NCBI GenBank assembly: GCA_044361115.1
Contig: JBIKJH010000001.1
Span: 228,593-292,592, forward strand
DNA from: Crocinitomicaceae bacterium
GTDB taxonomy: Bacteria; Bacteroidota; Bacteroidia; Flavobacteriales_D; Crocinitomicaceae
Reading direction: 5' to 3'
Length of the DNA stretch: 64,000 bases
Part shown: piece after piece, positions 30,041-51,561 of the stretch
Position numbering within the stretch: the first letter of the stretch is position 1
How the letters are laid out: each line of letters opens with the position of its first letter
Position numbers and translations under genes: made by a program
Notes under the pieces: model-generated
Database searches by the model: none
What the model was told of the DNA's origin: nothing
The model's input: only the letters and a program-made list of their open reading frames with translations

Positions 30041-30213
30041 GTTTAAATAATTCAGAATTGACACTACTTTCGCAGATTCGAATTCATTTGGGGAAATCAA
30101 AAAAACACAACTAAATCGGCAGCAAATAAGCCAGCAGAATTTTTAATCTATCTTGCTTGATGGAAAACAACTTAAACCTTGTTACCATTCTATTTAAGCC
30201 CTGTTTCATTTTG

Positions 30214-33257: not shown

Positions 33258-33314
33258 TGTTCAATGTTTTTAAATTAGTATTCAAAGTTGATTGAACTTT
33301 CTTAAAAACATATA

Positions 33315-33330
33315 TACCTAATCATCGGTA
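33315..33330. promoter_or_regulatory. island 7-2-7 palindrome, upstream of the OMP gene
   Basis: TACCTAA-TC-ATCGGTA, ~60 nt upstream of the ATG at 33257. Confidence 0.5.
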
Positions 33331-33351
33331 AAATCAACTATTTTTTTCTTT

Positions 33352-33372
33352 TACCTAGCAATAGGATGGGTA
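33352..33372. promoter_or_regulatory. island 7-2-7 palindrome plus an extra half-site, heading unit A
   Basis: TACCTAG-CA-ATAGGAT, overlapped by ATGGGTA. Confidence 0.5.
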
Positions 33373-33492
33373 TAAAAAGCCGATAACAATTAATTTTGGT
33401 CTGATTACATAGGACTGATCATATGAGTAGTAGTTAGGAGACATTGGTAACATTGTCGAAAATGGGTTCATTCATTTGAACCCATTTTTTTT
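33373..33492 (+). ncRNA. candidate small RNA, unit A (motif, then ~110 nt, then terminator)
   Basis: No ORF longer than 5 codons. It ends in aaatgggttc-attcattt-gaacccattt followed by a T-tract (33460-33492). Confidence 0.4.
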
Positions 33493-33729
33493 ATCCATTT
33501 AGCTCCGAAGCAACTGATTTGAAAATCGTTAAACGACATTCGAAAGAAACCATCAATTGAAGAATGCTTTACATAAAAAGAAACTCTTGAGAAGCGTTTG
33601 AATGAATATCTCCCTAAAATTGCGCGCATTTCAGAGGTGTAAATTGAACCGTAATAAATTATTGAAACCGAATTACAAGGATAACAGAACGTTCATAATT
33701 ACACCATCACCTAAAAATAGAATAGTTGC

Positions 33730-33903
33730 TCAAAGAAATACCAACACTGCTTCTACTGCAATAGTACCATTGGCTTCTAATTGCAATAATTGTCCAGTTT
33801 GAATTGTAGTAGGATGGTTTCCTACTTTTACTTGGGAAGCTGTCCTTGTTGTAAATACTCCTACTAGAAGAAGTAAGAGTAAATAATTGTTTGATTTGTT
33901 CCT
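33730..33903 (-). pseudogene. orphan 5' fragment of a paralogue of the glycine-rich gene (35230..36693)
   Basis: The reverse strand reads (AGG)NKSNNYLLLLLLVGVFTTRTASQVKVGNHPTTIQTGQLLQLEANG...stop. Compare MNKSNSYLFLLLLVGLFTTKAAAQVKIGNNPTTIGNSSLLELES. AGG replaces the ATG. Confidence 0.7.
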
Positions 33904-33917
33904 GCTATATTAGGTTA

Positions 33918-35162
33918 TTAATTCATTTCTTCTAGTACCCAAGTACTATTTGTATTCTTTAAATAATAAAGCGAAGGGGTACCTCTGGTAACATATTTTA
34001 AATAGCTATCTTTTTCCTCCGGGTGATAAAAAACTATGCTAGGATATTTATCTTCTTCAATTTGTGTACTTTCGGTTTCACACTTGGTACAAATGGCTAA
34101 CACCTTCTGTGTGGTATTTTTTAGTTGTTCTAATACCTCTTTACACGAACCACAACTGTTAGAATAAAAAAGTAGCACAATTTTATTCTCGTTTGTTTGA
34201 ATGAAGGATTTTATAGGTATTGGAATATCAAAAGGTTGTCCTATTTTAAAATTTTCATGCATTAAAAGTTTGGATTCCCATGCAATTAATTGATTTTCAC
34301 TAGCCTTTTTTAGTTGTAACATTTTTTTTAGAGCTATAACAAAATAAGTATTAGTACTATTATAATCGTAATTAGTATTAATCCAGTTATCTATAAAGAC
34401 TATGCCTTCTTCGGTTTTACCGATGTTAAAAAGTAAACTATCTATAAAACCTTCAAAATGGCTGAGCTCATTTTCATGCACTTTTTTCTGGTCTATCCAC
34501 CATTTATTTAAAACCCTATTCATCAATGGCGTATGAAATAAATAGGATTCATTGGGTGTAAGATTGTTCCAAAATGTACTTAAATAGACACTATTATCTG
34601 AATTTTCTAGATACATTAAATAATTATCCCATTGGGTACTGTTGTTTTTTATACTCTCCTCCAGCTCCTTTAGCTGTTGATTAATGTTTTGACCCAAAGT
34701 ATCTTTAAGGTTAAACAAACCGTAATCTTTGAAAACCAATTGATTATCGATATTAAATTTTAGCTGTTGCTGGAGTAAATTCCATTTAAATTTCGATTGG
34801 TTAAGTACAAACGATTGCGGCGCATTATCAAAAAACACATAATTGTTAGATGGATTCCAAAAAATAGTGTGTGTATTTTCATTACTGTCTATCACTACAT
34901 CTATAAAAGAAGATTCTTGAAGTATATGATCCTTAGCATAATAAATAGAGTAGATGCCCTCCTTAAGGGTTCGAACATCTAATATTGCTTTACCCTCCGT
35001 TACATTGGCTTGACTAAGGGGTTGATTTTTGGTATTGTTTGGGTAATATGAAAACAAATACACATGTCCTTCCTTAAAAGCAGGAGGTAAATACACTGTT
35101 ATTTGAGCCCTTGCAGACACCAAACACACAAAGCATAGCGCTATGTAAATTAACTTTTTCAT
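33918..35162 (-). CDS. secreted thioredoxin-fold protein (CGSC) with an N-terminal domain of unknown function
   Basis: Signal peptide MKKLIYIALCFVCLVSARAQ. The C-terminal region LLFYSNSCGSCKEVLEQL...TPSLYYL is thioredoxin-like. Confidence 0.75.
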   Translation of the reverse strand: MKKLIYIALCFVCLVSARAQITVYLPPAFKEGHVYLFSYYPNNTKNQPLSQANVTEGKAILDVRTLKEGIYSIYYAKDHILQESSFIDVVIDSNENTHTIFWNPSNNYVFFDNAPQSFVLNQSKFKWNLLQQQLKFNIDNQLVFKDYGLFNLKDTLGQNINQQLKELEESIKNNSTQWDNYLMYLENSDNSVYLSTFWNNLTPNESYLFHTPLMNRVLNKWWIDQKKVHENELSHFEGFIDSLLFNIGKTEEGIVFIDNWINTNYDYNSTNTYFVIALKKMLQLKKASENQLIAWESKLLMHENFKIGQPFDIPIPIKSFIQTNENKIVLLFYSNSCGSCKEVLEQLKNTTQKVLAICTKCETESTQIEEDKYPSIVFYHPEEKDSYLKYVTRGTPSLYYLKNTNSTWVLEEMN

Positions 35163-35176
35163 ATTCTGTTTTAGTA

Positions 35177-35218
35177 AACAGCAACACCCCATTTCTTTGT
35201 GAATGGGGTGTTACTGTT
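35177..35218 (-). terminator. intercistronic hairpin (15-bp stem, one mismatch)
   Basis: aacagcaacacccca-tttctttgtgaa-tggggtgttactgtt, between the stop at 35230 and the start at 35162. There is no clear U-tract. Confidence 0.4.
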
Positions 35219-35229
35219 TGTATTTTATA

Positions 35230-36693
35230 TTAAGGGCAGGTATAAGTAATTACAACCCTTCCATCACCACCAGAACCTCCAGTTGAATCATTACAAGCAG
35301 AATTTATTCCCCCTCCAGCTCCTGAGCCACCTGGTTGTGCACCATTACCTCCATTTCCACTTGAAGATGTACCACCAGCCCCTCCTGAAGGACCCGCACC
35401 AGCTACTCCTCCTCTTCCATTGACATTACAAGATGAAAAAGTGCCATTTACACCACTAGCTCCATTAGTATTTACATCTCCTCCTGTAGCCGTAACAGCA
35501 ACACCGCCTCCAAAAGGAGTAGTACCTTCACCGCCACGACCGCCACGTGCAGTTATGGTGTTAGAGGCATAAGTAATAATAGAATTGCCCCCTGCAACTC
35601 CATCCGCTGTAGTTATACCTCCACTACCTCCATTACCTACAGTATAGCTTATGCTAGTATTACCTGATGAAACCGTATAAAGTTTTAGGGTATAAGCACC
35701 ACTACCCCCTGAACCTCCGATTTGATCGGGTGCACAACCCCCGCAAGCGCCACCGCCACCACCGCCAGCGCCATACGCTTCTGCTTGGAATGATACGATA
35801 TCTGTGCCAGGAATTGTAAGAGTGCCTGAACCTGATGAATTGAAGGTTCTCCTGTAGTCATTAACTGTATATAGTTTTCCAACTCTATAATTGGTGCCAG
35901 TTTTTAAAGCATGTATGTAAACATTACCTGTATTTACTCCTGTTAGCAAACCAGTAGATGAGTTAATAGTAGCATTACCGGTATTATTCGATACCCAACT
36001 AGACAAACCTGTTCCTGTAGCAGTTTGTGTACAGGTCGTTAAAATAGTTTTACTTAAGGTAGGCGTTACAGTTACATCTAAGGTATTTGAACAGGTTAAC
36101 CCATTCTTTACAAAAGTAGCAGTTACCACCCCTGTTGATGGCACTGTGCCGCCTAGGGTGTAGGTAATGGTGAGCGAACCACCACCTGGTATTGCAGTAG
36201 TGGTAGAAGGAGATACAGAAGCGATGGTTAAACCCGATGCCCCTGATAATGTTACATCAGATGTAGCAGGTGTAATAGAACCCTCAAACAAAGAATTGTT
36301 TACTAACGTTACTTTAAAAGATTTAGCTCCTAAAATACTTACAGACTCCCCAGGTGCATAAGTACCCAGAAAACCATTGGTGTTAGGATCGCAGTTGGCA
36401 GAAATTGCACTTGGACCACCCCCACTTAGGCAACCCGACCATGCTCCGTTTTCATAACTTTTTGCGCATTTAGACGACATGTCATACACAAACATTCCAT
36501 CTACAGGGTTTGCTATAGCACTGGTATTTGCAACTCTGGGTAATACTAGCCCTTTGTTGGTGCTTTCCAGTTCTAACAGCGAACTGTTGCCGATGGTGGT
36601 AGGGTTGTTACCAATTTTTACTTGGGCAGCAGCCTTTGTTGTAAATAATCCTACTAATAGTAGTAAGAATAGATAACTGTTTGATTTGTTCAT
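35230..36693 (-). CDS. secreted protein with a C-terminal glycine-rich domain (phage-fibre-associated type); distant member of the island N-terminal family
   Basis: Signal peptide, then QVKIGNNPTTIGNSSLLELESTNKGLVLPRV. C-terminal AYGAGGGGGGACGG..GGSGGSGAY..VGNGGSGG..ARGGRGGEG..GGAGG..GGSGGDGRVVITYTCP. Confidence 0.8.
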   Translation of the reverse strand: MNKSNSYLFLLLLVGLFTTKAAAQVKIGNNPTTIGNSSLLELESTNKGLVLPRVANTSAIANPVDGMFVYDMSSKCAKSYENGAWSGCLSGGGPSAISANCDPNTNGFLGTYAPGESVSILGAKSFKVTLVNNSLFEGSITPATSDVTLSGASGLTIASVSPSTTTAIPGGGSLTITYTLGGTVPSTGVVTATFVKNGLTCSNTLDVTVTPTLSKTILTTCTQTATGTGLSSWVSNNTGNATINSSTGLLTGVNTGNVYIHALKTGTNYRVGKLYTVNDYRRTFNSSGSGTLTIPGTDIVSFQAEAYGAGGGGGGACGGCAPDQIGGSGGSGAYTLKLYTVSSGNTSISYTVGNGGSGGITTADGVAGGNSIITYASNTITARGGRGGEGTTPFGGGVAVTATGGDVNTNGASGVNGTFSSCNVNGRGGVAGAGPSGGAGGTSSSGNGGNGAQPGGSGAGGGINSACNDSTGGSGGDGRVVITYTCP

Positions 36694-36726
36694 AATATAT
36701 TATTTATTTTTAGTTTAAGTTTTTTT

Positions 36727-36799
36727 TCTTTGTGTTCTTTGTGTTCTTTGTGTTCTTTGTGTTCTTTGTGTTCATTGTGTTCTTTTTGTCTTTGTAGTG
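36727..36799. repeat. 9-bp tandem repeat (gtgttcttt, about 6-7 units)
   Basis: tctttgtgttctttgtgttctttgtgttctttgtgttctttgtgttcattgtgttcttt... It directly abuts the homology breakpoint of the neighbouring gene fragment. Confidence 0.85.
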
Positions 36800-36845
36800 T
36801 TTTTTATTTACCAAGGAGGCACTGAGGGCCCTGAGATTTTTAGTT

Positions 36846-37033
36846 TTTAGTTCATTTCCTGTTAAGCGAGGAGCCATAATACCATCTGCAATGGTCGTAG
36901 CTCAAGGGTCTCCAACAACCTGAAGCCTTGTATGCGGACTTATCGTTCCTTCGCCAACTTGTGCATGTACTTGTGCGCTGAAAAAGAGTGCACTGAAAAA
37001 GAGAATGTTTGTTTTCATAAAGTTGTATTTCAT
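36846..37033 (-). pseudogene. orphan 5' fragment of a tail-fibre-like paralogue (in-frame stop, truncated)
   Basis: MKYNFMKTNILFFSALFFSAQVHAQVGEGTISPHTRLQVVGDP*ATTIADGIMAPRLTGNELK. There are long identical nucleotide runs with 38684-38800, for example ttcatttcctgttaagcgaggagccataat. Confidence 0.8.
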
Positions 37034-37063
37034 ATATTATTTGGTTTGCTTTTATTTACTAAT

Positions 37064-37101
37064 TCAAAGAAATCGAATCTAAGCTGATTCGATTTCTTTG
37101 A
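37064..37101 (-). terminator. 14-bp perfect hairpin 22 nt after the stop of the 37123 gene
   Basis: caaagaaatcgaat-ctaagctg-attcgatttctttg. There is no U-tract on either strand. Confidence 0.45.
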
Positions 37102-37122
37102 AATGGGATTAAAAAAATGGGT

Positions 37123-38853
37123 TTACTTCTTTGTTAATTTCTCTACCAAGCCCTTCAACTCGTCTAGTTGTTTTTGCTGGTCTTCTAGCTGGACTTGTTG
37201 CTTTTCTATTTGGACTTGTTGATTAACATTCTGAGCTTGCTGTTTTTCTAGTTGTAACAACAATCCCTTTGTAGCACTCAAATTAAGTATGGTAAGACGG
37301 TCATAATCTATATTGCGGAAATCTGACACCTCTTTACCATAGACAAATGCTTCTTTAGTAGTTAACTTAGTGTTGATACTTAGTTGATTGTTAGCTGTAG
37401 CTACAACTTGCGCTGTTTTCTCGGTTTCTACTTTGTTTTCCAACACATAAAACTTAATTACATCACCCACCGCAATATCACTGCTATTAATTCCCATAAA
37501 AACAGTTTGTTCTCCAACGGTTTTTACCTCAGCTTTGCTGTATACATTGGGGATGAATTCTTTGCCTTTTAATACTGCTTCTGGAAATACGGCCTCTACA
37601 TCTTGCGCAAAAACACCTGTTTTGATGCCATCACCTTTTGTTTTTGTATCTTTATAACTGTATTTTAAGATGTTTAATTTAGCAACGGTGTTTAACGACG
37701 CCATATGATCTACTGTTCCTTGTTTTACTTTAATACGTGCATCCGAATAGGCTCTAAATTCATGACCTGTTGCAATCAGACCTGTAGCGTAGATACTCGC
37801 AGGTGTATTAACCGATGAAGCTGTTCCATTGCCTACATTGTTTAAGTATCCATAGTTACCAGACATGTTACTTCCACCTACTCCATTTACGTGAAGCTTT
37901 GCAATAACAGTAGTTGTATTTATACCCACATTTCCTGCGGTAGTAATCATTAATCGAGGTTGCCCAACTGATTCATCCGCAATAGCAAAGGAACCAACAA
38001 AATCTGGTCTTGAAGCCACAGACCACGTTCTATTTGTGCCTACACTTTCTAAATACAAGGCACTTGAAGCATAATTGCCACTTGTACCTTTTATGTGTAA
38101 CCTTGATAAAGGCGTAGTTATACCCATTCCAATATAACCGTCGTCTGTAATTCTCATCCTCTCTACAGCGACAGAACCAGCTGGAGATGAACCAAAGGCT
38201 AAATGATGATTATGGTTTATAGAACCTGTATGGATACCTTCGATATATGCACCTCTTCCAGATCCTGAACCCATTAGAATTCTTGAACTGTGACTTACAC
38301 CTGTCCCACCAGTGGAATTATTGCCTATGACCAATCCTGGAAATATATTTGATACAGAAGAACCTCTGATCTCCAAACTTAGGTTTGGAGTATTGGTACC
38401 AATTCCAACTCTGTCGTTCGTTCCATCAATAAACAAGGTGTTGTTATCAAAATTTAGGTTATCGGTTACACCTACGGTTCTTCCCGCTCCGACTGTTCCG
38501 TTGGTGGTGTATAGGTTTTCCATTGCTGTTCCAGGTACCAATTTTTGCCAAACCGTTCCATCGAAATAGTAGTAACCCACCGATAAAACATTCGCTGTTT
38601 TGGTGGTTGGACCTGTAACGGCAGATGTTATGTAGACCATGGCACCGATTTCATCCGTTCCGTAAACTGCATCCTTCGCTTTTAGTTCATTTCCTGTTAA
38701 GCGAGGAGCCATAATGCCATCTGCAATGGTCGTAATTCCGGGGTCTCCAACAACCTGAAGCGTTGTCTGCGGACTTGTCGTTCCTACGCCAACTTGACTT
38801 TGCGCGTATTGGTTTACGGATATTAGTGCAGCGATAATAAAAATTTGTTTCAT
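37123..38853 (-). CDS. tail-fibre-like secreted protein with a C-terminal S74 intramolecular-chaperone domain (P1)
   Basis: The ATG at 38853 gives the signal peptide MKQIFIIAALISVNQYAQSQ. Repeated G.VGIGT..P...L.V.G motifs are present. Also SDARIK...GVFAQDVEAVFPEAV (endosialidase-chaperone signature) and a terminal coiled coil. Confidence 0.85.
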   Translation of the reverse strand: MKQIFIIAALISVNQYAQSQVGVGTTSPQTTLQVVGDPGITTIADGIMAPRLTGNELKAKDAVYGTDEIGAMVYITSAVTGPTTKTANVLSVGYYYFDGTVWQKLVPGTAMENLYTTNGTVGAGRTVGVTDNLNFDNNTLFIDGTNDRVGIGTNTPNLSLEIRGSSVSNIFPGLVIGNNSTGGTGVSHSSRILMGSGSGRGAYIEGIHTGSINHNHHLAFGSSPAGSVAVERMRITDDGYIGMGITTPLSRLHIKGTSGNYASSALYLESVGTNRTWSVASRPDFVGSFAIADESVGQPRLMITTAGNVGINTTTVIAKLHVNGVGGSNMSGNYGYLNNVGNGTASSVNTPASIYATGLIATGHEFRAYSDARIKVKQGTVDHMASLNTVAKLNILKYSYKDTKTKGDGIKTGVFAQDVEAVFPEAVLKGKEFIPNVYSKAEVKTVGEQTVFMGINSSDIAVGDVIKFYVLENKVETEKTAQVVATANNQLSINTKLTTKEAFVYGKEVSDFRNIDYDRLTILNLSATKGLLLQLEKQQAQNVNQQVQIEKQQVQLEDQQKQLDELKGLVEKLTKK

Positions 38854-38958
38854 GAAAAATTGAAATAGAGTGAATAAATGGACCACGTTGTTTAATCGTT
38901 ATTTGCTTAACCAATTCAAATAATGCGTGAAATTAGCTGGGTCTGCCTTAGGGGGGTA

Positions 38959-38974
38959 TACCTACTACTAGGTT
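38959..38974. promoter_or_regulatory. island 7-2-7 palindrome upstream of P1
   Basis: TACCTAC-TA-CTAGGTT, ~105 nt upstream of the ATG at 38853. Confidence 0.5.
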
Positions 38975-39338
38975 ATTTCACTAATTGGTTGAATAACTTT
39001 CAATTGCACCTAAATCTCTGCAGCGACAAACAAGCTGATTTGAGTCAATGAATGAATGGATTGATTCTTTCCTGTAAAAATAACGCTAACGAAGTTTAGT
39101 TGATTGTATATTATTTGGATGGTTGTGTACGTGCTGACAAACTTCTTCCGCGATACATTGTATCACTCCGATTCTTTATTCACCAGTGTTTCCAATTGCT
39201 TTTTGAAAAAGTTGGATTTGTTAAATAAGTCTCAATATTCGGGATTTTAAAATAGTTGGGGTTATCCATTTCCCATTTAATTAAAAAAATTAATTTTATG
39301 CCCTTAAATATTGATTATGAATAACATTACTACCATAA

Positions 39339-39370
39339 TACCTAATATTGGGTATACCTACCAATGGGAT
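39339..39370. promoter_or_regulatory. two abutting island palindromes upstream of the sensor kinase
   Basis: TACCTAA-TA-TTGGGTA, immediately followed by TACCTAC-CA-ATGGGAT. The second ends 35 nt before the ATG at 39405. Confidence 0.55.
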
Positions 39371-39404
39371 AATCGCATTAGTTTTGGTCTTAAATAAAAA
39401 TAAA

Positions 39405-41369
39405 ATGACCGCTCACGTTAAATTTAGAATGCTGCTTTTTACCCTTGCTCTAGCGTTCAGCCACACCACTTTTGCATTGCAAAATCCGTTTTTTAAAAAC
39501 ATTCCACAATTAACGGATCCCGAAGTTTATTTGAAACAAATTAAACACTTTGCCGAAACAGATGATTGTTTGATTCATACCAAGCATTTTATGAAAATTT
39601 ATGCGCGTAATGGGTTAAAACTTTTACCTCAGCATATTAATGAACTCCGCGCAATTAATAAATTATTAATTAGCAAATCGACTGAATATAGGGGCTATGC
39701 TATTTATTCGAATGCCTTATGTTTTTTCTCTGAAGGCAACTATCAGCAGGCTTTAACCATTTTAAATAAGGAACTAGTTAAACTTGGTAAAAAAGGAAAT
39801 CCAGAGCTTAAGTTTTATTTAGTAGGGTTGAAAGCATCGTGTTATTACTTTCTTGGAGACTTTGACCAATCAACTAAATTTTACTTGAAGGCCTTAAAAA
39901 CGTATAAGGTGGAGTATGATCGAAAGTATACCATTTATCAAAACATTGGATCTAATTTTTATGCTCTACGTTTGTCGGATAAAGCGCTTGAATACTATTT
40001 AAAAGCAGATGAACATTATAAGCATAAAAAAAATGATATACTGATGTTTATCACTTGGATCTATACAGATTTTCAGGATTTTAAAAATGCGGATAAGTAT
40101 GCTGGCTATTTAATAGCGAATCAATCAATGATGACGGATTTTGAATTAACAGCACTATACGAAACACTGGCTAAAATTGAACATATTAAACAAAATAACG
40201 TGAAAGCTTTAGAGCTGATGGATCAATCAATAGCTATCCTAAAAAATAACAATGTTTCTACTTTCGATTTGATAAATATAGATTATATATTAATCTCAAA
40301 GTTGGCTATTAAAGGTGAAATTTTAATGGATTTAAAGAAGTATAGCGCAGCCTTAGATGTTTTTAATGAAGGTTTGGCAATTGCTAAAAAAACCAATAGG
40401 ACAATAAGTGAAATTGAAATTTATCAAAATCTATACAATGTATCCAAATTATTAGGTCAAAATGACAAGGCTCTTTTTTATTTAGAGCGTTTTAATAAAT
40501 TAGAAGACGATCTACATAAAAAAGAACTTAAAAGTGAAATTGTCAAGCTTGAACGGGTGTACAATTTTGAAAAGAAAAATACGGATATAAAAATTCTGCA
40601 AAATGATAAAAAAATCAAGCAAATTGAAATTCAAAAATCCAAGCAGTATATACTTTTGTTAACTATCACAATCTTACTTGTTTCAATTGGTTTGTTCACA
40701 CTTTTCAAATTGAATATTGATAGCAAGAAAAAAAATGCGCTGAAGATAGATTTACTAGTAAAGAATACAGAATTACAGTTAGTGAAATCACAATTGATGG
40801 GACAAGAAATTGAAAAATCGCGCATTTCACAAGAATTACATGATGGGGTGGCAAATAATCTTTTATCCTTGATATATGCGAATGAAAATACGCTAAAAGA
40901 ACCTTTACGGGCAATTTATAACGAAATACGCATTATTTCCCATAACTTATCGACTGTTGCAATTCGGAACAATAGTTCATTAAAGGAAATAGTGCTGGAA
41001 CTATTTTATCGTATTTTTGACGAACAAGAAGTGACGCTTGACTTGATATGGGATAAAAAAAATGAAACATTTATGTGTGAAGAAGAGGTTAATTTAGTGC
41101 TTTATCGTGTTTTTCAAGAGTTGTTTATCAACATTGTAAAGCATGCTGAAGCAACCTCTGTGATTATTGAATTTCAAAAAGATGCACATGAGTTTACAAT
41201 CGTTATTGCAGATGATGGAAAGGGTCCTGATAAAAAAACGCAAGGAATTGGACTTAGCAATATTGAGGATCGAATTAAAACGATAACTGGTCGTTTTAGT
41301 ATTCTTTTTAACACCCAATACAAGCAAAAGACAATGGGTGCTGTTTCAAGTATTGTTATTCCTATTTAA
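39405..41369 (+). CDS. TPR-containing sensor histidine kinase (HisKA_3 / HATPase_c)
   Basis: Signal/TM segment, TPR-like helical repeats, TM helix ILLLTITILLVSIGLFTLF, H-box SRISQELHDGVANNL, and ATPase motifs ADDGKG..GIGLSNIEDR. Confidence 0.88.
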   Translation: MTAHVKFRMLLFTLALAFSHTTFALQNPFFKNIPQLTDPEVYLKQIKHFAETDDCLIHTKHFMKIYARNGLKLLPQHINELRAINKLLISKSTEYRGYAIYSNALCFFSEGNYQQALTILNKELVKLGKKGNPELKFYLVGLKASCYYFLGDFDQSTKFYLKALKTYKVEYDRKYTIYQNIGSNFYALRLSDKALEYYLKADEHYKHKKNDILMFITWIYTDFQDFKNADKYAGYLIANQSMMTDFELTALYETLAKIEHIKQNNVKALELMDQSIAILKNNNVSTFDLINIDYILISKLAIKGEILMDLKKYSAALDVFNEGLAIAKKTNRTISEIEIYQNLYNVSKLLGQNDKALFYLERFNKLEDDLHKKELKSEIVKLERVYNFEKKNTDIKILQNDKKIKQIEIQKSKQYILLLTITILLVSIGLFTLFKLNIDSKKKNALKIDLLVKNTELQLVKSQLMGQEIEKSRISQELHDGVANNLLSLIYANENTLKEPLRAIYNEIRIISHNLSTVAIRNNSSLKEIVLELFYRIFDEQEVTLDLIWDKKNETFMCEEEVNLVLYRVFQELFINIVKHAEATSVIIEFQKDAHEFTIVIADDGKGPDKKTQGIGLSNIEDRIKTITGRFSILFNTQYKQKTMGAVSSIVIPI

Positions 41370-41380
41370 TACTACAAGTG

Positions 41381-42049
41381 ATGTTAGATATACTTCTCGT
41401 AGATGATCATAAATTATTCCTCGAAGGAATCAAGGGTATTTTAATTCAAAATCCAAAAGTAAATAGCGTTACTATGTTGACCGAACCCAAAAAAGTATTG
41501 CCTTTTTTGATTTCGCATAAAACGGATGTTTTGTTTACCGACTTAAATATGCCTGATTTCGACGGAATTGACTTAATACAAAAAGTAAGAAATGAACATC
41601 CTAAAGTAAAAATTTGTGTTCTGACAATGTATTATAACTTTAATCTGTTGGCCTCACTAAAAAAGCACCATGTTGATGCTTATTTACATAAAAGTATGGA
41701 GGTTTCAGAGTTTGACGATGCACTGGAAGCCATTAACAGAAATGAACGTTATTATTCCTATGAACCTGCAAAAGTTAATCAAGCGTACGATCTTATTGTA
41801 AACAAGGAAAAAGAAGGCGAAAACATTAAAGACGATTTTATCCGAAAACACATGCTTTCACCACGCGAATTTGAGGTATTGAAATTAATTGTTGAAAATT
41901 ATTCCACAAAAGAAATTGCTGAGAAACTCTTCTTATCCGAACTAACAATATCAACGTATAGGAAATACATCATTAAAAAAACGGGATGTAAAACGGCCGT
42001 TGAATTGTATAAATATGCACTTGATGCCGGAATAATGAAACACGATTAG
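41381..42049 (+). CDS. NarL/FixJ (LuxR-type HTH) response regulator
   Basis: REC domain ILLVDDHKLF...DLNMPDFDG. C-terminal GerE HTH LSPREFEVLKLIVENYSTKEIAEKLFLSELTISTYRKYI. Confidence 0.9.
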   Translation: MLDILLVDDHKLFLEGIKGILIQNPKVNSVTMLTEPKKVLPFLISHKTDVLFTDLNMPDFDGIDLIQKVRNEHPKVKICVLTMYYNFNLLASLKKHHVDAYLHKSMEVSEFDDALEAINRNERYYSYEPAKVNQAYDLIVNKEKEGENIKDDFIRKHMLSPREFEVLKLIVENYSTKEIAEKLFLSELTISTYRKYIIKKTGCKTAVELYKYALDAGIMKHD

Positions 42050-42449
42050 CGTTTCAATCATTCGATTTCGCTATTTTTTTATTTAGATTTTCGACACAAA
42101 CAATGCCTGTAATTCTATTATAAGTAACATGTTAATTCTCCCTACTGGGATTGATATTTCTTCATACCTATCCTCTTGTTGACCAAGCAAAAAGTCATTT
42201 ACGCGAGTGCTACTATGACATACAAATTCAATCTTTATTCAATAATGCCATAAGGGTTAGTAAAATAAAATCTAAATCTATTGCGCTTTTTGCGTCGTTT
42301 GAACATGCAACTCAATATCTTTCAACAAGGCTTATTCACCGGAGCAAAATTCCGATAAAAGAAAAACCCAACAGTGAGAACTTACGTCTTACTGTTGAGT
42401 CTATCAATTGAAAAGAACAATTGTTCCTTGAATTCAGTTTAGTTGTCGG

Positions 42450-42558
42450 TTAAATGCAGCGTCTTTTCTGGTTTGTTGTACCTATTCCTACCTGTGCATG
42501 CCCCAATTCAGCGCAAATAATTATTAGAAGTGCTACTGAATTTTCCTTAAGCCGTCAC
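42450..42558 (-). pseudogene. orphan 5' fragment of a tail-fibre-like paralogue
   Basis: The reverse strand reads (V)TALKENSVALLIIICAELGHAQVGIGTTNQKRRCI*. Compare the P2 N-terminus ..LVCVGLANAQVGIGTTNPQTT. It lies directly 3' of P2. Confidence 0.6.
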
Positions 42559-42595
42559 AAAATTCAAATCAATCAACATTCGATTTAAAGGAGTT

Positions 42596-44119: not shown

Positions 44120-44160
44120 CCTATAAAATTTAAATTATCAACTAACGGTTGAGTCGTGTT

Positions 44161-45627: not shown

Positions 45628-45655
45628 AATTGTTTTGATTTTAGATTAATAAGGC

Positions 45656-46819
45656 TTAATTCCCTAGATAAATAAAAGTGTTTACACTTAAGCTCTTTGG
45701 TGTAATGTCTAATGCGGTACCACTGCCTCCCAAAGGAACATTATGGGTATGACCTGGTAATGCACTGCCTGAAAAGGTGTGCGTATGATTTGGTTCTGCA
45801 TCTGTCGAAACTAAATTTCCAGATGCACCGTCCGAAAAAACACCAGGGGTTGGTCCACCTGTTACACCTGTCCTATACCTAATAAAAGCACTCAAATTAT
45901 GCGAATGCGCACCGCCGCCGCCGATAGTACCGCTTGGGGTACCTGCAGTAACTGAAGCTGCTGTTAAATTTATATTGGGTAAATTGGCTTGCGTGATTGT
46001 TTTACTGTTTGATCCACTTACACTTCCCAGCGCTGTTCCATTTTGAATTAAACAAGAGTTTGTTGCATCAGGCAAGTTTGTAACAATACCAAGCGCCGTA
46101 GCTCGGATTTGCTGATCTGCAGAAAGTGTAGACTTTACTCTACCGTCTAGCTTGACCCATCCGCCATGATCGACAGTTTGGATACCCGTTTTAATATCAC
46201 CATAGGTCATATTGGGAACATTTACCCAGTTTGGTGCACTTCCAGCACCGTTACTTACCAAGACCTGACCAGCAGTGCCAGCGGTATTATTTGGCATCAA
46301 TGCTCCCGAGAATTTAACATTTCCAGTAAGATCTAATTTTTCTGTTGGTGTAGATGTGCCGATACCAATTCGGTTATTTGTTCCATCAAGAAATAAGGTT
46401 CCGGCATCGAAATTCACGGTATTTGTTACATTGACCGTTCTTCCACTTCCAATTGTTCCGTTAGTCGTATAAATATTGTCAGTACTAGAACCTGTAACGA
46501 TTCGTTGCCAAACACTGCCATCGTAATAAAAATAGCCTGTCGAATTCACGTTCGTTGTTTTCGCAGAGGCAGAAGTAACTGCAGCAGAAACATAAACGAT
46601 TGTTCCCCTGTGATCTGACCCGTAAACAGCATCTTTCGCTTTCAGTTCGTTTCCTGTCAATGTGGGTGCAATCATTCCATCGGCGATTGTACTGTTTGTA
46701 GGCGCTCCTTTTACGTCTAAGGTTGTTGCTGGAGATGTTGTGCCAATCCCTACTTGTGAGAAGGCATTAAATTGTACACTGATTACTAGTGCTGCAATTG
46801 GTAAAAATTTTTTAAACAT
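45656..46819 (-). CDS. secreted protein with the shared N-terminal module and a phage tail-collar (MdpB-like) C-terminal domain (P3)
   Basis: N-terminal QVGIGTTSPATTL..LTGNELKAKDAVYGS..NIYTTNGTIGSGRTV..DGTNNRIGIGT. C-terminal GDIKTG...GWVKLDGR...LPD...HSH..HTHTF..GHTHNV...LSVNTFIYLGN. Confidence 0.8.
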   Translation of the reverse strand: MFKKFLPIAALVISVQFNAFSQVGIGTTSPATTLDVKGAPTNSTIADGMIAPTLTGNELKAKDAVYGSDHRGTIVYVSAAVTSASAKTTNVNSTGYFYYDGSVWQRIVTGSSTDNIYTTNGTIGSGRTVNVTNTVNFDAGTLFLDGTNNRIGIGTSTPTEKLDLTGNVKFSGALMPNNTAGTAGQVLVSNGAGSAPNWVNVPNMTYGDIKTGIQTVDHGGWVKLDGRVKSTLSADQQIRATALGIVTNLPDATNSCLIQNGTALGSVSGSNSKTITQANLPNINLTAASVTAGTPSGTIGGGGAHSHNLSAFIRYRTGVTGGPTPGVFSDGASGNLVSTDAEPNHTHTFSGSALPGHTHNVPLGGSGTALDITPKSLSVNTFIYLGN

Positions 46820-46910
46820 AATTAAAATTTGTAGTGTGGTTTTTAAAATAACCTGTTAATAAACAATTAATAATGAGAGCAAAATTATCAGGGTCTTACA
46901 ACTTCATATC

Positions 46911-46926
46911 TACCTACTGCTAGGTA
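46911..46926. promoter_or_regulatory. island 7-2-7 palindrome upstream of the P3-P5-P2 operon
   Basis: TACCTAC-TG-CTAGGTA, ~95 nt upstream of the ATG at 46819. It is near-perfectly symmetric. Confidence 0.55.
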
Positions 46927-47426
46927 TATTTTTAACAAATGCAAAAAAAGTTTTTGCCCAAAAATTTATCTAGGAAAGTAGTTCACTTTATTTTAGTGAA
47001 ATTGCATATGGATTTTGAAGTGTTAAGATGATACGTTATTTAATACATTGAGCGAAATAGCCAAACCAATTAAAATGTTGCACAAGCGCTACATAATTCT
47101 GTAATATGTTTTCTTCTTTTTTGAAGCATTTCAATGTCATAGGTTCGTTTAAAAGAGGAATAAATGGAAAAAAAGAGAATCCATTTGAATATTTTCAATG
47201 ACAACTTTTGAATTTAAGTCGTTGCAACATAAAGTAACATCGCCAATTGGCAAAAACACCAATTGATCGATCAGCAAGTTGCATCCCATTTTAAATCGTT
47301 TTTGAATCAATTTTGTTCCTTCATTTACCTTACCATTTTTGAGGTTGGATTCTAGGATTGATGAAATCACCTTGCTGCATAAAACCTAAGTGTAGGATAG
47401 TTAACTCATTCCATTTTGACATGGTA

Positions 47427-47547
47427 AAATAAAAAAGCCCACCTTTTACTCGAGGTGGGCTCCAAAGTAATCTTAATTACTTGTACCTAACTTTACTAAC
47501 CACTACACTAGCATACAATTTTAAGGACTCTCAACAATAAACTATTA
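47427..47547 (-). ncRNA. candidate small RNA, unit B
   Basis: Downstream (minus strand) of the palindrome at 47548-47563. It has no meaningful ORF and ends in agcccacc-N10-ggtgggct followed by TTTTTTATTTT on the minus strand (47427-47461). Confidence 0.45.
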
Positions 47548-47563
47548 TACCTATTAGTAGGTT
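47548..47563. promoter_or_regulatory. island 7-2-7 palindrome heading unit B
   Basis: TACCTAT-TA-GTAGGTT. Confidence 0.5.
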
Positions 47564-47731
47564 ATTATTAATTTAATCGCGTCATTTTTGCTTCTCGGAG
47601 AAAGAGGCAAACAAACCTAAAAATGACGAAACTCCAGTTTTAATAAACCCTGCAGGATCTTTTTTTTGTCTACAATAGGTTGTTTTTTTGAAATGTGATG
47701 CATGGATCATTCGGTTAAGATTTATGCAATT

Positions 47732-47747
47732 TACCTACCAATGGGTA
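47732..47747. promoter_or_regulatory. island 7-2-7 palindrome upstream of the S8 protease
   Basis: TACCTAC-CA-ATGGGTA, ending 44 nt before the ATG at 47791. The right half is exactly AKRRGTA. Confidence 0.55.
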
Positions 47748-47790
47748 TAGTTGTTGTGAGCTGATAGCCATCAACTTTGCGCAAAAAAAC

Positions 47791-49893
47791 ATGAAGTTAA
47801 GTTGGTTTACGTTTGTCTTTTTATTAATTGGTCATCAACTCTATTGTCAAGAAAATTATACAATTTGGGTAACAAGTAAAAGTGATAATTTAGCGTCCAA
47901 TCGCCCAAAAGAATTCGATCATTATTCTTTGATAAAACTATCGAAAGCATTTCCATCCTCGAAAATGGCAAACTTGCAAAAGGTTTATGAACTTGAATTT
48001 TCAACGAATGCTCAGGCCCTTATTGATTCAATAAATAGTGGCGTTTACACCGATTTATATTATGCTGTTCAAGCGCCCGAACTAGCGCCGCTGTTTGTGC
48101 CCAATGATTATGCCTTGGTTAGTGGACCAAATTATGCGCTGGGATTGATAAATGCGTCGAGTGCTTGGGAGCTGACCCATGGTGACAGTTTAATTCGCAT
48201 TGGTATTTTGGATACTAATTATGATCTAAATCATGAGGATTTGCAAACTAAAATTGCTTTTATCGAACCTACGAACACCAATTCACAAACAGTTCATGGA
48301 ACGGCCGTTGCGATAACAGCTGCGGGAGGAACAAATAACAATGTTGGTATCAGTTCAATTGGTTTTAACACAAAAGTTGAATTGCGGTCAATGAATTATA
48401 ATCAGATTTTGGAGGCTTCGTATTCAGGCGCCAAGGTAATTAATTTAAGTTGGGCTTCTGGATGTGCATATAATCAATATTGCCAGGATATAATTGATGA
48501 GGCCTATTTCAATGGATCAATAATTGTTGCTGCGGCAGGAAACGGAAGCACATGTGGAGGAGCAACAAACTATGTTTATCCAGCAAGTTTTAATCATGTT
48601 TTTTCAGTAAGTAGTATTGGACCTTTGAATAATCATGAGCGAACCATCGGAATTCCGAGTACAACACATCAACACAATGATAGTGTAGATCTTTGTGCTC
48701 CTGGGTATGATGTATTATTGTCTACTGCAAACGGTGTTTACTTAACTGGGAATGGAACTTCCTTTGCGGCACCATTTGTATCTGGTACAATTGCGCTTAT
48801 GCTCGCGGTTAATCCATGTTTAAATTTTGAGCAAATCGATGAGATTTTTAAATTATCCTCTTTTGATTTGGATACCATTAATCCGAGTTATTCTGGCCTT
48901 TTGGGTCATGGCCGGTTGGATGCAGGTTTAGCTGTTTCGTTGGCGGCCAATTATTCAACCATTCCCTTTAACTACCACGAATCATTTAGTTGTTCAGATT
49001 CAAGCTATACTGTACTAATTGACAATGTAGGAGCTTCAAATTACGACGTTGTTTGGGAGGATGGAACTATTGGTAATACTTTAACAGCGGTTTCTGAAGG
49101 TTCACTAGTACGGGGGGAAATAATATCAACAGAAGGCTGCTTCTCAACATTCGAACTAAGTTTAGATTCAATTGCGCCCTTGGAAATTATAACTGAAAAA
49201 ACGGATGTTACGTGCTTTGGTCAAAACAGCGCTAGTATTTCTGCTGAACTGAACTCATCAGATATTGCCTATAGCTGGAGTAACGGAGAAACTGGATTAC
49301 ACTTGAATAATTTATATGCTGGAAACTATACTTTAACCGTTTACCGATATGAGGATTGTATCGATAGTATAGAATTTACAATTACACAACCTGAAGAAAT
49401 TGTAATTGACATTGCTATTGAACAAACTAGCCTAGCGGGTCCCATTACACTTCATTCAATTATCAATGGCGGTGTACCTGACTATACGTACAGCTGGAAT
49501 ACGGGTGAAACGGACAGCCTACTTCAAGGCGTTTTAGGAGGATTTTATGAACTTGAAGTGACTGATTTTAAGGGTTGTACAGATAGCAAAAATATATACG
49601 TCCCAGCTCATACATTTAACGTCCTGAATAGCCCAAATGCGAACAATTACGCTCTTATAGAGAATACTGTTGTAAATAACGAGTTGTATTATTATGACAA
49701 ACGCTTGTATTTCAGTTCACTTGACATAGAAGCGTATTCTTTGTACAATTCAATTGGTCAAAAAGTGCAAATCAACGTTGAGAAAAACGATAATTTCTTC
49801 GATTTATCTGGTCTAGTCAGTGGTAACTATTTCGTTTTTATATTCTTAAAGAATGGAAAGCAAATTTCAATGCCAATTCTTGTTTACGAATAA
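47791..49893 (+). CDS. S8 subtilisin-family peptidase with SprB repeats and a T9SS C-terminal domain
   Basis: Catalytic triad contexts GILDTN, HGTAVA and GTSFAAPFVSG. SprB-type repeats (TCFGQNSASI..YSWSNGETG..AGNYTLTV). A CTD at the end. Confidence 0.88.
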   Translation: MKLSWFTFVFLLIGHQLYCQENYTIWVTSKSDNLASNRPKEFDHYSLIKLSKAFPSSKMANLQKVYELEFSTNAQALIDSINSGVYTDLYYAVQAPELAPLFVPNDYALVSGPNYALGLINASSAWELTHGDSLIRIGILDTNYDLNHEDLQTKIAFIEPTNTNSQTVHGTAVAITAAGGTNNNVGISSIGFNTKVELRSMNYNQILEASYSGAKVINLSWASGCAYNQYCQDIIDEAYFNGSIIVAAAGNGSTCGGATNYVYPASFNHVFSVSSIGPLNNHERTIGIPSTTHQHNDSVDLCAPGYDVLLSTANGVYLTGNGTSFAAPFVSGTIALMLAVNPCLNFEQIDEIFKLSSFDLDTINPSYSGLLGHGRLDAGLAVSLAANYSTIPFNYHESFSCSDSSYTVLIDNVGASNYDVVWEDGTIGNTLTAVSEGSLVRGEIISTEGCFSTFELSLDSIAPLEIITEKTDVTCFGQNSASISAELNSSDIAYSWSNGETGLHLNNLYAGNYTLTVYRYEDCIDSIEFTITQPEEIVIDIAIEQTSLAGPITLHSIINGGVPDYTYSWNTGETDSLLQGVLGGFYELEVTDFKGCTDSKNIYVPAHTFNVLNSPNANNYALIENTVVNNELYYYDKRLYFSSLDIEAYSLYNSIGQKVQINVEKNDNFFDLSGLVSGNYFVFIFLKNGKQISMPILVYE

Positions 49894-49965
49894 CAATAAA
49901 AAATATTCAAGTCTTTATCTAATGGAATTCATTTCGGTGAAAAAGAGTGCAAATACTTTATGAAA

Positions 49966-49982
49966 TACCCAATGATTAGGTA
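49966..49982. promoter_or_regulatory. island palindrome (7-3-7 variant) heading unit C
   Basis: TACCCAA-TGA-TTAGGTA. Confidence 0.45.
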
Positions 49983-50096
49983 GATCAATACTTTGCTTTT
50001 TAAGCTAACTTTATATGAGGGACTTATGGTTTCAGTTCCCTTTTATGTTTTTCAATAACAGGTGTTGAAGATTTCAATGCCTGTTATTCTTTTTCT
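49983..50096 (+). ncRNA. candidate small RNA, unit C
   Basis: About 110 nt whose only ORF is a 17-codon one not conserved in the other units. It ends in aataacagg-N17-cctgttatt followed by cttttt (50054-50096). Confidence 0.4.
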
Positions 50097-50203
50097 GTAA
50101 GCCACCACATCTGCTAAGAAATGTTTATAAAGTCTTTTTCCATTTCGTAAACACAACTCATATTTTCCTTTAACAGCGTGAAATTGGGCTATTATTACCA
50201 AAA

Positions 50204-51136
50204 TTACGAAAGGTGTAATTCAACCATTTTCATATAGAATTTTAGGCATTCTTTAATATGAATAAGAATCATATATTCATTGTTTATTGGTTGGATAGTG
50301 ATCGTGAAGTTTTCATAATTGATGTATTTACTAGATGTAGATTTTAGACCCGGTAGGGATAAGGTTGAAAAGAAATCTTTGTACAACTTGTTGATTTCGA
50401 TGCTATTTAATGGGCTCGACACAATAGCAGTAATAAAAACTCCACTGCATCTATCCAGGTACATACAATTTGTAAAATGATCAATTTGATAAGAAAACTC
50501 GTGTTTTCTTTTTGAAACAGCTTTTAAACGATAGAATACTTCCCTTAGTTCATTTAACACAATATTCTCAGCTGCTCTTGTATCGAATGCATCATTTTTG
50601 GTTTCCACTTGTGGATAAAATGTAGAAAAGTATTCTTTACCAACTACCACTTTCATGGAATTGATTTTCACAAGTGATTCAGCCAATGGACTAAAAAGAA
50701 AATGCCCGGATCCAGCAATTGGATAAGGTAATGTTACTTTAGAAAATTGGTTATTTTGACTAGCTTGGTGATTTTGAAGGTTGTAATCATACCATGATGC
50801 AAATGTAAAAGCCCTACTCATGTCAATTATTTTAATTTGTTTGTCTCTTGAATCGATTGTTGCAAAGTTTTTGCGGACTGAATCTGGATTAGCACATACC
50901 AAGAGTGTATCCAATTTTTCAAAATTAAATTTGGATCTAAATTTGAAATTTCGATCGACTTGGTCTTTTTCTCTAACATCTTTTTCAAAAAAATCCTTTT
51001 CTAATGCTCTTTTGTCAATTTGTTGATCGATTACACATTGAATGGTATCAAGATTTTTTATGCGTAATAAGGAATTGAATAATTTTTTCGATTGCTGATT
51101 CTTGGATAAGAATAAGCCTACTTTTCTGCGTGGCAT
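50204..51136 (-). CDS. hypothetical protein; possible degenerate ArgC-like (N-acetyl-gamma-glutamyl-phosphate reductase fold) pseudoenzyme
   Basis: It looks collinear with ArgC landmarks recalled from memory: LLVCANPDS / IKIIDMSRAF (cf. iDLSaDfR), LPYPIAGSGHFLFSPLAE (cf. NPGCYpT..L.L.PL), and SGVFITAIV (cf. RGI.aT). The GxxGxxG motif and the catalytic Cys are missing. Confidence 0.6.
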   Translation of the reverse strand: MPRRKVGLFLSKNQQSKKLFNSLLRIKNLDTIQCVIDQQIDKRALEKDFFEKDVREKDQVDRNFKFRSKFNFEKLDTLLVCANPDSVRKNFATIDSRDKQIKIIDMSRAFTFASWYDYNLQNHQASQNNQFSKVTLPYPIAGSGHFLFSPLAESLVKINSMKVVVGKEYFSTFYPQVETKNDAFDTRAAENIVLNELREVFYRLKAVSKRKHEFSYQIDHFTNCMYLDRCSGVFITAIVSSPLNSIEINKLYKDFFSTLSLPGLKSTSSKYINYENFTITIQPINNEYMILIHIKECLKFYMKMVELHLS

Positions 51137-51200
51137 GTATTGATTTTTTTAGTGTACTAATTTCAACCTCAAAAATCCTTTTATTTGCTTAATCCATGTA

Positions 51201-51216
51201 TACCTACTTGTAGGAA
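51201..51216. promoter_or_regulatory. island 7-2-7 palindrome upstream of the ArgC-like gene
   Basis: TACCTAC-TT-GTAGGAA, ~65 nt upstream of the ATG at 51136. Confidence 0.5.
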
Positions 51217-51312
51217 GATTCTAACTAATTTGAAAAAATCTACATTCTTGAGTTGATCTAGCAAATAAAAGAATGAACAACTGAAGTAATTAAGCGAAAG
51301 TATCTTTACCGA

Positions 51313-51461
51313 ATAAAAAAGTCTCTGAACATTAACTATCCAGAGACTTTGCCGAAAATTAACTGATTCGTCAGTATGCCTTACCTAAACTTAACAATTG
51401 TAATTACGAACCATTCATAATTAATTGGTTCAAACTTCATGTTATTTGAGTTATTTGAGAC
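51313..51461 (-). ncRNA. candidate small RNA, unit D
   Basis: Downstream (minus strand) of the palindrome at 51462-51477. It ends in agtctctg-N13-cagagact followed by TTTTTTATT on the minus strand (51313-51348). The only ORF is a 19-codon one. Confidence 0.45.
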
Positions 51462-51477
51462 CTACCTATTTATAGGG
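51462..51477. promoter_or_regulatory. island 7-2-7 palindrome heading unit D
   Basis: TACCTAT-TT-ATAGGGA. Confidence 0.5.
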
Positions 51478-51561
51478 AATTTTAAAAATAAGGATCTGAC
51501 TATCTGCTCAGACACTACAATAATCCGAGCACCAGGATAGAATTCTAAGCATAAAAATAGA

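Follow-up and report, generated by a model that had tools for sequence, protein, structure and literature searches.

Four short intergenic units in a stretch of 64,000 nucleotides of DNA from a Crocinitomicaceae bacterium (GenBank assembly GCA_044361115.1, contig JBIKJH010000001.1, positions 228,593 to 292,592 of the forward strand; hereafter the window) are probably genes for small regulatory RNAs, which would be driven by the response regulator of a local two-component system and made together with surface-protein and protease genes of the same island. We give this reading, which rests on sequence comparison, a probability of about 0.65. An initial annotation of the window had described the units, here called A to D, as a palindrome followed by a short segment without a credible open reading frame (ORF) and by an intrinsic terminator, and had proposed them as a family of co-regulated small RNAs. 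All four units are intergenic, each has its own predicted promoter and terminator, and none has conserved coding potential, as is the case for stand-alone small RNA genes.

The comparisons below draw on contigs from relatives. Exact-protein look-ups gave a near-identical strain (99%; L001 and L004-L007) and lineages about 86-87% identical in protein (L002, L003, L009, L010, L018 and L019). Further contigs are one whose kinase is 85% identical to that of the window (L020) and one from a distant relative (L011), in which the kinase and the S8 protease orthologue are 38% and 49% identical, respectively.

An operator and promoter layout common to units and protein genes

When up to two mismatches were allowed, the palindrome TACCTA-N4-TAGGTA (TACCTANNNNTAGGTA) was matched 10 times in the window against 1.09 expected, and 10 matches were reached in 0 of 100 shuffles. 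An extra copy with a 5-nt centre (N5) lies at 49966-49982. Within the window all copies are confined to 33315-51478, and ten of them are intergenic. The copy at 49475-49490, inside the S8 protease ORF, has no promoter box of the kind described below and is probably a chance occurrence. As the initial annotation had it, each unit begins right after a palindrome, and a second palindrome, on the side of the outer-membrane protein (OMP) gene, lies 21 nt from that of unit A.

We oriented each intergenic palindrome towards its own gene or unit before comparing promoter boxes. A Bacteroidota sigma-A -7 box (TAnnTTTG-like) was present 23-24 nt downstream of all ten intergenic operators (10/10), and nine of the ten boxes match at least five of the six specified positions, a match that the background yields at 0.02 per site. 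The -7 box of Flavobacterium psychrophilum occupies positions -12 to -5 (PMC9723704), and the predicted transcription start (+1) was accordingly placed five nucleotides after the box. With the box in this position and a constant spacing of 23-24 nt, the operator would extend from about -51/-52 to -36/-37, with its centre at -43.5 or -44.5 relative to these predicted starts. Most of the promoters have no TTG at the -33 position, which fits dependence on an activator. A sigma-70 promoter scan of the window gave 64 matches against 72 expected, with a model that is not meaningful for Bacteroidota.

The palindrome is laid out as two inverted heptamers 2 bp apart (TACCTAN-NN-NTAGGTA; for example TACCTACTGCTAGGTA and TACCTACCAATGGGTA), and we interpret it as a NarL-type 7-2-7 operator to which the regulator is predicted to bind. 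The half-site TACCTAY fits the NarL heptamer consensus, TACYYMT. NarL recognizes a 7-2-7 arrangement, and in E. coli it activates yeaR through one such site, at -43.5, and ogt through sites at -44.5 and -77.5 (PMC10853779). The operators of the island have the same inverted heptamers 2 bp apart, with the centre near -43.5/-44.5 of the predicted start, except that the operator of unit C is 7-3-7 in this strain; in the relatives the latter is a 16-bp TACCGATGATTAGGTA, which is also the sequence of the OMP operator. On Bacteroidota sigma-A promoters with a -7 box, the 7-2-7 geometry at -43.5/-44.5 appears to be retained.

Six of the operators serve protein genes or operons and the other four serve units A-D. 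The initial annotation had left open the possibility that the hairpins of the units were simply shared terminators with no independent promoter; the units have the same operator and -7 box layout as the six protein-gene promoters, and this layout is kept in the relatives. The presumed operator-binding activator is the NarL-family response regulator encoded next to the kinase, which is the only DNA-binding protein of the island. Its best match among solved structures is E. coli NarL (E=7e-18), and the database source entries call it a NarL/FixJ family regulator. The double operator before the kinase is also present in L009 (2012-2043) and in L011 (2027-2058), and in L011 the same operator precedes the orthologues of both the kinase and the S8 protease. 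The abutting arrangement suggests autoregulation of the kinase/regulator operon, which may be cooperative or dose-dependent. The coordinates of all of these features are collected in Table 1.

Table 1. Operators, promoter boxes, predicted RNAs and two-component genes of the island
Feature	Position	Strand	Basis or remark
Operator of unit A (TACCTAGCAATAGGAT), 7-2-7 inverted repeat	33352..33367	+	conserved in L009, L018, L019
-7 box of unit A (TAATTTTG), 23 nt past operator	33391..33398	+	8/8 identical in L009
Predicted RNA A, ~90 nt	33403..33492	+	promoter box, fold, alignment
Operator of unit B (AACCTACTAATAGGTA on minus strand)	47548..47563	-	palindrome and -7 box
-7 box of unit B (TAAAATTG), 24 nt past operator	47516..47523	-	invariant in L009, L010
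Predicted RNA B, ~81 nt	47511-47431	-	terminator scan, fold, alignment
Operator of unit C (TACCCAATGATTAGGTA)	49966..49982	+	1-nt insertion (7-3-7) in this strain
-7 box of unit C (TAACTTTA, 5/6 match; perfect TAAATTTG in relatives)	50006..50013	+	box match
Predicted RNA C, ~77 nt	50018..50094	+	terminator scan, fold, alignment
Operator of unit D (TCCCTATAAATAGGTA on minus strand)	51463..51478	-	palindrome and -7 box
-7 box of unit D (GAAGTTTG), 24 nt past operator	51431..51438	-	box match
Predicted RNA D, ~112 nt	51426-51315	-	terminator scan, fold, alignment
Sensor histidine kinase (TPR repeats, HisKA_3, HATPase_c)	39405..41369	+	domain matches
NarL/FixJ-family response regulator (Response_reg and GerE)	41381..42049	+	domain matches
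Two abutting operators before kinase/regulator operon	39339..39370	+	palindrome and -7 box
Operator of OMP gene, divergent from unit A	33315..33330	-	-7 box CAACTTTG at 33283-33290
Operator of tail-fibre-like (Peptidase_S74) gene 37123-38886	38959..38974	-	palindrome and -7 box
Operator of operon 46819-42596	46911..46926	-	perfect palindrome, -7 box
Operator of S8 protease gene, divergent from unit B	47732..47747	+	palindrome and -7 box
Operator of 310-aa gene 50204-51136	51201..51216	-	~100 nt downstream of unit D terminator
Island	about 30-51.5 kb		adjoins tRNA-Lys

Structure and conservation of the predicted RNAs

Counted from the predicted starts, RNAs A and B have a common plan, consisting of an unpaired 5' part (GUAGURGUUAGG...), one 7-bp hairpin and a terminator hairpin. 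In RNA A the predicted 5' sequence is GAUUACAUAGGACU, followed by GUAGUUAGGAG and by the 7-bp hairpin with the loop GUAA, and the terminator is a 13-bp hairpin (33458-33489) followed by U8, which was seen in the fold and missed by the terminator scan. RNA B has an invariant predicted 5' part, CUAGUGUAGUGGUUAGUA..UUAGGUAC, a 7-bp hairpin whose tetraloop varies, and a GC-rich terminator of 11 bp (47434-47463) followed by U6. RNA C is predicted to contain the conserved sequence GAGGGAYUURUGGUUUCARUUCC and ends in a terminator hairpin of 16-17 bp (50054-50088) followed by a U-tract. RNA D would have four parts: a 5' hairpin that varies, a long unpaired segment that is almost invariant (CAAUUGUUAAGUUUAGGUAAGGCAUA), a hairpin of 5 bp (ACUGA/UCAGU), and a terminator of 14 bp (51318-51350) with U6 after it.

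That each unit ends in a hairpin and a T-tract was borne out: the terminators of B, C and D ranked first, third and fourth in the terminator scan, and that of A was found by folding. Folding z-scores of the four units range from -2.7 to -4.3, and the minimum-free-energy folds contain long, stable terminators and no competing structure. Reading of the sequence placed the T-tract on the unit's own strand alone in all four cases. This, together with the operator and -7 box layout, led us to reject the explanation that the units are bidirectional or shared terminators of neighbouring genes without a promoter. The terminators of units C and D probably also end the S8 protease and methyltransferase mRNAs, respectively, in which case these mRNAs would carry small-RNA sequence in their 3' untranslated regions (UTRs).

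No ORF of at least 20 aa was found on the transcribed strand within the four predicted transcripts, and none is conserved across the indels described below, in agreement with the initial annotation; a 21-aa TTG ORF in unit C begins upstream of the predicted start. The Rfam comparison that had been proposed as a check returned no family for the units: with Rfam 15 at the gathering threshold only the tRNA passes in the window, and the best sub-threshold matches of the units score 19-21 bits (E>3). ARAGORN called only tRNA-Lys and nothing tRNA-like in the units, though the 5' part of unit B (GUAGUGGUUAG) resembles a D-arm. Downstream of unit B, a 73-aa ORF (47149-47370, minus strand) has a weak SPASM match (E=1.4e-3, below the Pfam threshold); it is poorly conserved in L009 and is probably a gene remnant or a chance ORF.

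All four units were found in the lineages that are 86-87% identical in protein, with the operator and -7 box intact. The window and the relatives are 0.96 identical over the transcribed core of unit D, as opposed to 0.42 over the operator-to-box spacer and 0.51 after the terminator. The transcribed cores of the other units are likewise more conserved than the DNA downstream of them (0.84-0.90 versus 0.51-0.57 for B, 0.79 versus 0.34 for A, and 0.87 versus 0.56 for C), and the neighbouring genes are 0.74-0.86 identical at their four-fold degenerate sites. From these alignments, constraint appears obvious for unit D and moderate for A, B and C. Variable columns are fewer at paired than at unpaired positions (19/208 versus 44/158; one-sided Fisher p=2.6e-6, with the structure derived from the same alignments), and in unit B all of them are unpaired (0/50 versus 11/31, p=7e-6). 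The tetraloop of the unit B hairpin varies (UAAG, GAAA, GUUA), as do the terminator loops, while the stems are unchanged, and the unit C terminator has one compensatory change, A-U to U-A, at the base of the stem. With so few and such closely related sequences there is hardly any true covariation, so the structural evidence rests on conservation and thermodynamics.

The alignments also bear on coding potential, since a conserved small ORF in the relatives would have pointed to peptide genes. None was found. In the relatives, unit A carries 3-nt and 1-nt indels and unit B 1-nt and 2-nt indels, unit D has a 5-nt deletion in L009, and in unit C an ATG is replaced by TTG and a 1-nt indel brings in a premature stop, so that the ORFs are broken.

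Units of the same kind were present beyond the four of the window. A fifth operator-driven unit, D2, was observed in L018 (6622-6792) and L019 (537-707, minus strand) and is missing from the window. Its operator is ATCCTAGTCATAGGTA, the spacer is 23 nt long and the -7 box (TAAATTTG) is perfect; the unit lies near the integrase fragment, where the window has no such unit. The overall identity of D2 to D is 76%, with 21 of 24 positions of the unpaired core and the terminator kept, and on this resemblance we regard it as a paralogue of D. In the distant L011, an operator copy directly follows the S8 stop codon and is followed, after 24 nt, by TATTTTAT and then by a non-coding unit of about 85 nt, which is analogous to the units of the window and folds with z=-5. 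An operator followed by a short structured RNA would thus be a recurring feature of this two-component system and not an accident of one genome.

With a covariance model of B, A was the next-best match in three lineages, weakly (15-16 bits, E about 0.1), and the L011 unit was not recovered. A and B are probably old paralogues, and by sequence C and D seem unrelated to them. Of the proposed family of co-regulated small RNAs, co-regulation is therefore supported, as a prediction, by the shared operator layout, but a single homologous family is not, since only the pairs A/B and D/D2 look paralogous.

Proposed circuit and alternative explanations

The reading we favour is a circuit in which the island would be the regulon of its own TPR/HisKA_3 kinase and NarL/FixJ regulator pair. 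A dimer of the phosphorylated regulator would bind TACCTAN-NN-NTAGGTA and, from -43.5/-44.5, upstream of the sigma-A -7 box, would activate transcription in a class-II-like manner, as E. coli NarL does. Six of the ten promoters would express the OMP, the tail-fibre-like and type IX secretion system (T9SS) surface proteins, the S8 protease, the 310-aa protein and the kinase/regulator operon. The remaining four would drive stand-alone non-coding transcripts of about 77-112 nt, stopped by one-directional intrinsic terminators. Each RNA would combine a conserved unpaired segment with a small hairpin and the terminator hairpin, and the unpaired segment would act through base-pairing with mRNAs or through binding of a protein. 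In this way the RNAs would add a post-transcriptional arm to the regulon.

Several observations weigh against this circuit. The cores of A, B and C (79-90%) are only modestly above the four-fold degenerate sites (74-86%), and constraint on them is clear only relative to flanking intergenic DNA. The structure used for the comparison of paired and unpaired columns was taken from the very alignments tested, the RNAalifold covariation term is +0.53, with one or two pairs changing on both sides among 3-6 close sequences, and the 5' hairpins of C and D are poorly kept in some relatives. The operator of unit C is perhaps weakened here, because of its 7-3-7 spacing and 5/6 -7 box, and this unit may be poorly expressed, down-tuned or decaying in this strain. 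Lastly, when the units were compared with 47 translation-start regions of the window in a crude RNAduplex scan, the duplexes were long and unrealistic, and there was no outlier. A pairing of the 5' end of unit B with the 5' UTR of gene 46819 (AACCAC..UACA), noticed by eye, did not stand out and was dropped.

One alternative is that the units are orphan promoter-terminator modules, left behind by promoter duplication or gene decay, whether transcribed or silent, with no function in trans and serving at most as extra regulator sites or as insulators or terminators for the genes upstream (S8 for C, the methyltransferase for D). The modest conservation of A, B and C and the duplex scan without targets agree with this explanation, as does the island itself, which is much rearranged and contains many gene fragments; moreover, downstream of the S8 and methyltransferase genes the first terminators encountered are those of C and D. 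We nevertheless consider it unlikely. A bare module has no need of the sequence between box and terminator, which is far more conserved than either the operator-to-box spacer or the DNA after the terminator. Substitutions avoid the stems, the 24-nt unpaired core has been kept between D and D2 despite their overall divergence, and A and B have no upstream co-oriented gene to terminate.

It is a still less probable possibility that the palindrome is a repressor site, or is bound by a different factor, so that the units are not co-activated by the local response regulator. Palindromes that overlap the -35/-33 region can also repress, and binding is here a prediction. By contrast, the scarcity of a -33 TTG is typical of activator-dependent promoters, and the sequence of the site, its 7-2-7 geometry and its position equal those of NarL activation sites. 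The NarL-family regulator is the sole DNA-binding protein of the island, and operator and kinase also occur together in the distant L011.

The position of some units raised the question of whether they are cis-acting leaders or tandem upstream promoters, that is, terminated leaders whose read-through feeds the following regulon gene of the same orientation. In L009, L018 and L019, which lack the block 33.5-38.9 kb of the window, the kinase operators are preceded, at a distance of about 115 nt, by a co-oriented unit A; L020, with a window-like arrangement upstream of the kinase, contributes no further copy of unit A. Likewise, D is about 100 nt upstream of the operator of the 310-aa gene, and B is upstream of the operon that starts at 46819. 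However, C faces a convergent gene, no co-oriented gene follows D2 or the unit A of the window, and each gene that does lie downstream comes with a complete operator and promoter. The DNA between a terminator and the next operator is the least conserved (34-57%), and the long, stable terminators end in U6-U8 tracts, with no competing structure in the minimum-free-energy folds. We therefore think a leader function very unlikely, and rejected a riboswitch or attenuator leader in particular, given that C, D2 and the A of the window lack a co-oriented gene and the other downstream genes have promoters of their own.

Small-peptide genes, encoding leader, signalling or RiPP-type precursors (ribosomally synthesized and post-translationally modified peptides), are the least credible explanation: short ATG ORFs are present (MSSS in A, MLV in B, 10 and 17 aa in C, MNGS in D), Bacteroidota are reported to need no Shine-Dalgarno sequence (PMC7797042), and the weak, sub-threshold SPASM-like ORF lies downstream of B, but the predicted transcripts hold no sense-strand ORF of at least 20 aa, the ORFs of C are destroyed in the relatives, B and D contain indels whose lengths are not multiples of three, and the substitutions track stems and loops, not codons.

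A further element within the RNAs is relevant to the small-RNA circuit. The initial annotation had noted an internal copy of the right half-site in A, B and D, and this holds for B (AGTTAGGTA) and D (AGTTTAGGTA), whereas A (AGTTAGGAG) is not an exact match to the pattern; the orthologues of unit A carry GTTAGGTG at this place. The shorter motif TTAGG occurs, in sense orientation, in units A, B and D as well as in D2 and the L011 unit, and C is without it. It is mostly extended to TTAGGT or TTAGGTA, which is the promoter-proximal half-site of the operator. Judged by its frequency in the window, TTAGG is expected in a 90-nt segment with a probability of about 0.05, and its presence in three of four units has a probability of roughly 5e-4 if the motif is treated as named in advance. 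The distance of TTAGG from the operator centre varies (about 68, 76 and 85 bp), and the 5-nt deletion in the unit D of L009 reduces the element to UUAGGC, with loss of TAGGTA; for these reasons it is unlikely to be a downstream DNA-binding site of the regulator.

At the RNA level, UUAGG may serve as a seed or be bound by a protein. We also considered a more speculative extension, to which we assign long odds, in which the RNAs form a linked set through an exposed UUAGGU(A), an RNA copy of the operator half-site, and act either as protein decoys or by pairing with ACCUAA. As decoys, they would titrate a UUAGG-binding protein. In the pairing variant, their partners would be transcripts with ACCUAA that read through the operators of the regulon, and feedback would then be encoded by the operator sequence itself. 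To our knowledge, Bacteroidota lack Hfq and largely lack CsrA.

The island and its likeness to known systems

The window has a G+C content of 36.5%, and its -7-box promoters and T9SS sorting domains place it in Bacteroidota. A tRNA-Lys gene (29935-30008) followed by a truncated integrase fragment (Arm-DNA-bind_5; 30157-30462) appears to mark the left edge of the island as an old integration site; no attR repeat matching this edge was found. The block 33.5-38.9 kb contains segmental duplicates of the 5' parts of genes (33803-33912 and 36593-36702, 81% identical; 36840-36961 and 38675-38796, 91% identical). Upstream of the glycine-rich protein gene 35230-36693, a 430-nt gap includes a 9-nt tandem repeat (TTTGTGTTC) present about eight times at 36702-36808, which could be a slippage-prone tract. 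The content of the island differs even among near-identical strains: L004 (16966-17513) is without the tail-fibre-like gene 42596-44119. In L010, a 107-aa fragment stands in place of the 381-387-aa gene of the others.

Among the protein genes under operator control, the OMP gene encodes an outer-membrane beta-barrel protein, and two operons encode tail-fibre-like (Peptidase_S74) and T9SS-sorted surface proteins. Peptidase_S74 is an intramolecular-chaperone domain typical of phage tail fibres. Three surface-protein paralogues (37123-38886, 42596-44119 and 45656-46819) have a common N-terminal segment, with about 66-69% DNA identity over 300 nt; two of the three contain the Peptidase_S74 domain, and all three are under operator-driven promoters. 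The label 'ArgC-like', given earlier to the gene 50204-51136 (minus strand), found no support, as its product has no Pfam or NCBIfam match, and we treat this 310-aa gene as an orphan under predicted operator control.

The lineage is rare. Among 5.8 billion proteins, the 310-aa protein forms three clusters at 90% identity and the kinase has five close clusters. A scan of GTDB species representatives with the kinase gave only an unrelated Bacillota match, so the lineage is not among them, and a metagenome scan with the kinase alignment gave only remote matches (25-44% over fragments), which were not used.

The small-RNA biology of Bacteroidota is thin outside Bacteroides, and characterised circuits in Flavobacteriia-like Bacteroidota are scarce. 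Here, a 20-kb stretch unites four to five putative small RNA genes with a presumed activator, its operator and co-regulated surface-protein and protease genes, and the proposed circuit gives falsifiable predictions, namely start sites at the nucleotide level, the operator and the regulator. Its reach is limited in that the lineage is uncultured and rare and that two-component systems driving small RNAs are already well known.

At the level of the promoter, the closest likeness is to the E. coli NarL promoters yeaR (-43.5) and ogt (-44.5). In both systems the inverted heptamers are 2 bp apart with the same centre, which in the island is predicted, and the site abuts or overlaps the upstream promoter element; the closest solved-structure relative of the island regulator is NarL itself. 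By contrast, the sigma-A of the island's host uses -7/-33 boxes instead of -10/-35, the sensor is a TPR-containing kinase and not NarX, activation is here predicted from sequence, and the regulon comprises surface proteins, proteases and small RNAs in place of nitrate respiration.

GacA is a NarL/FixJ-family regulator, and a palindromic upstream sequence is found on several of the small RNA genes it controls (PMC2375449). By these two features, GacS/GacA-RsmX/Y/Z would be the circuit nearest to that of the island, and, like BarA/UvrY-CsrB/C, it combines a NarL/FixJ regulator and an upstream palindrome with several small RNA genes that end in intrinsic terminators. The GacA box differs in sequence from the island operator and sits further upstream, and Rsm RNAs carry many GGA loops that sequester CsrA/RsmA. 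The units of the island carry zero to two GGA each, mostly outside loops, so that we rejected their assignment to Rsm/Csr-type RNAs; instead of repeated GGA loops they have one or two UUAG(G) elements. Unlike GacA, the island regulator also seems to control many protein genes directly.

Among the two-component-driven small RNAs of Proteobacteria, RcsB-RprA, OmpR-OmrA/OmrB and LuxO-Qrr1-5 resemble the proposed circuit in that one response regulator drives small RNAs within an envelope or surface regulon, and in that several small RNAs are made from one operator type. RcsB, too, belongs to the NarL/FixJ family, and its binding site lies immediately upstream of the -35 element. The RprA, OmrA/B and Qrr RNAs depend on Hfq, and their seeds and targets are known. 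The Qrr and Omr RNAs are close siblings, whereas the units of the island are mostly unrelated in sequence.

Within Flavobacteriia, Rfp18 of Flavobacterium psychrophilum is an 'indep' small RNA linked to protease expression (PMC9723704). Compared by description, Rfp18 and the other 'indep' RNAs resemble the units in being stand-alone and structured, with a sigma-A TAnnTTTG promoter and an intrinsic terminator, but Rfp18 is not known to be driven by a NarL-type operator. By analogy, then, the transcriptional layout of the island would work like NarL-activated promoters, and the circuit as a whole like the two-component-driven small RNAs of Proteobacteria.

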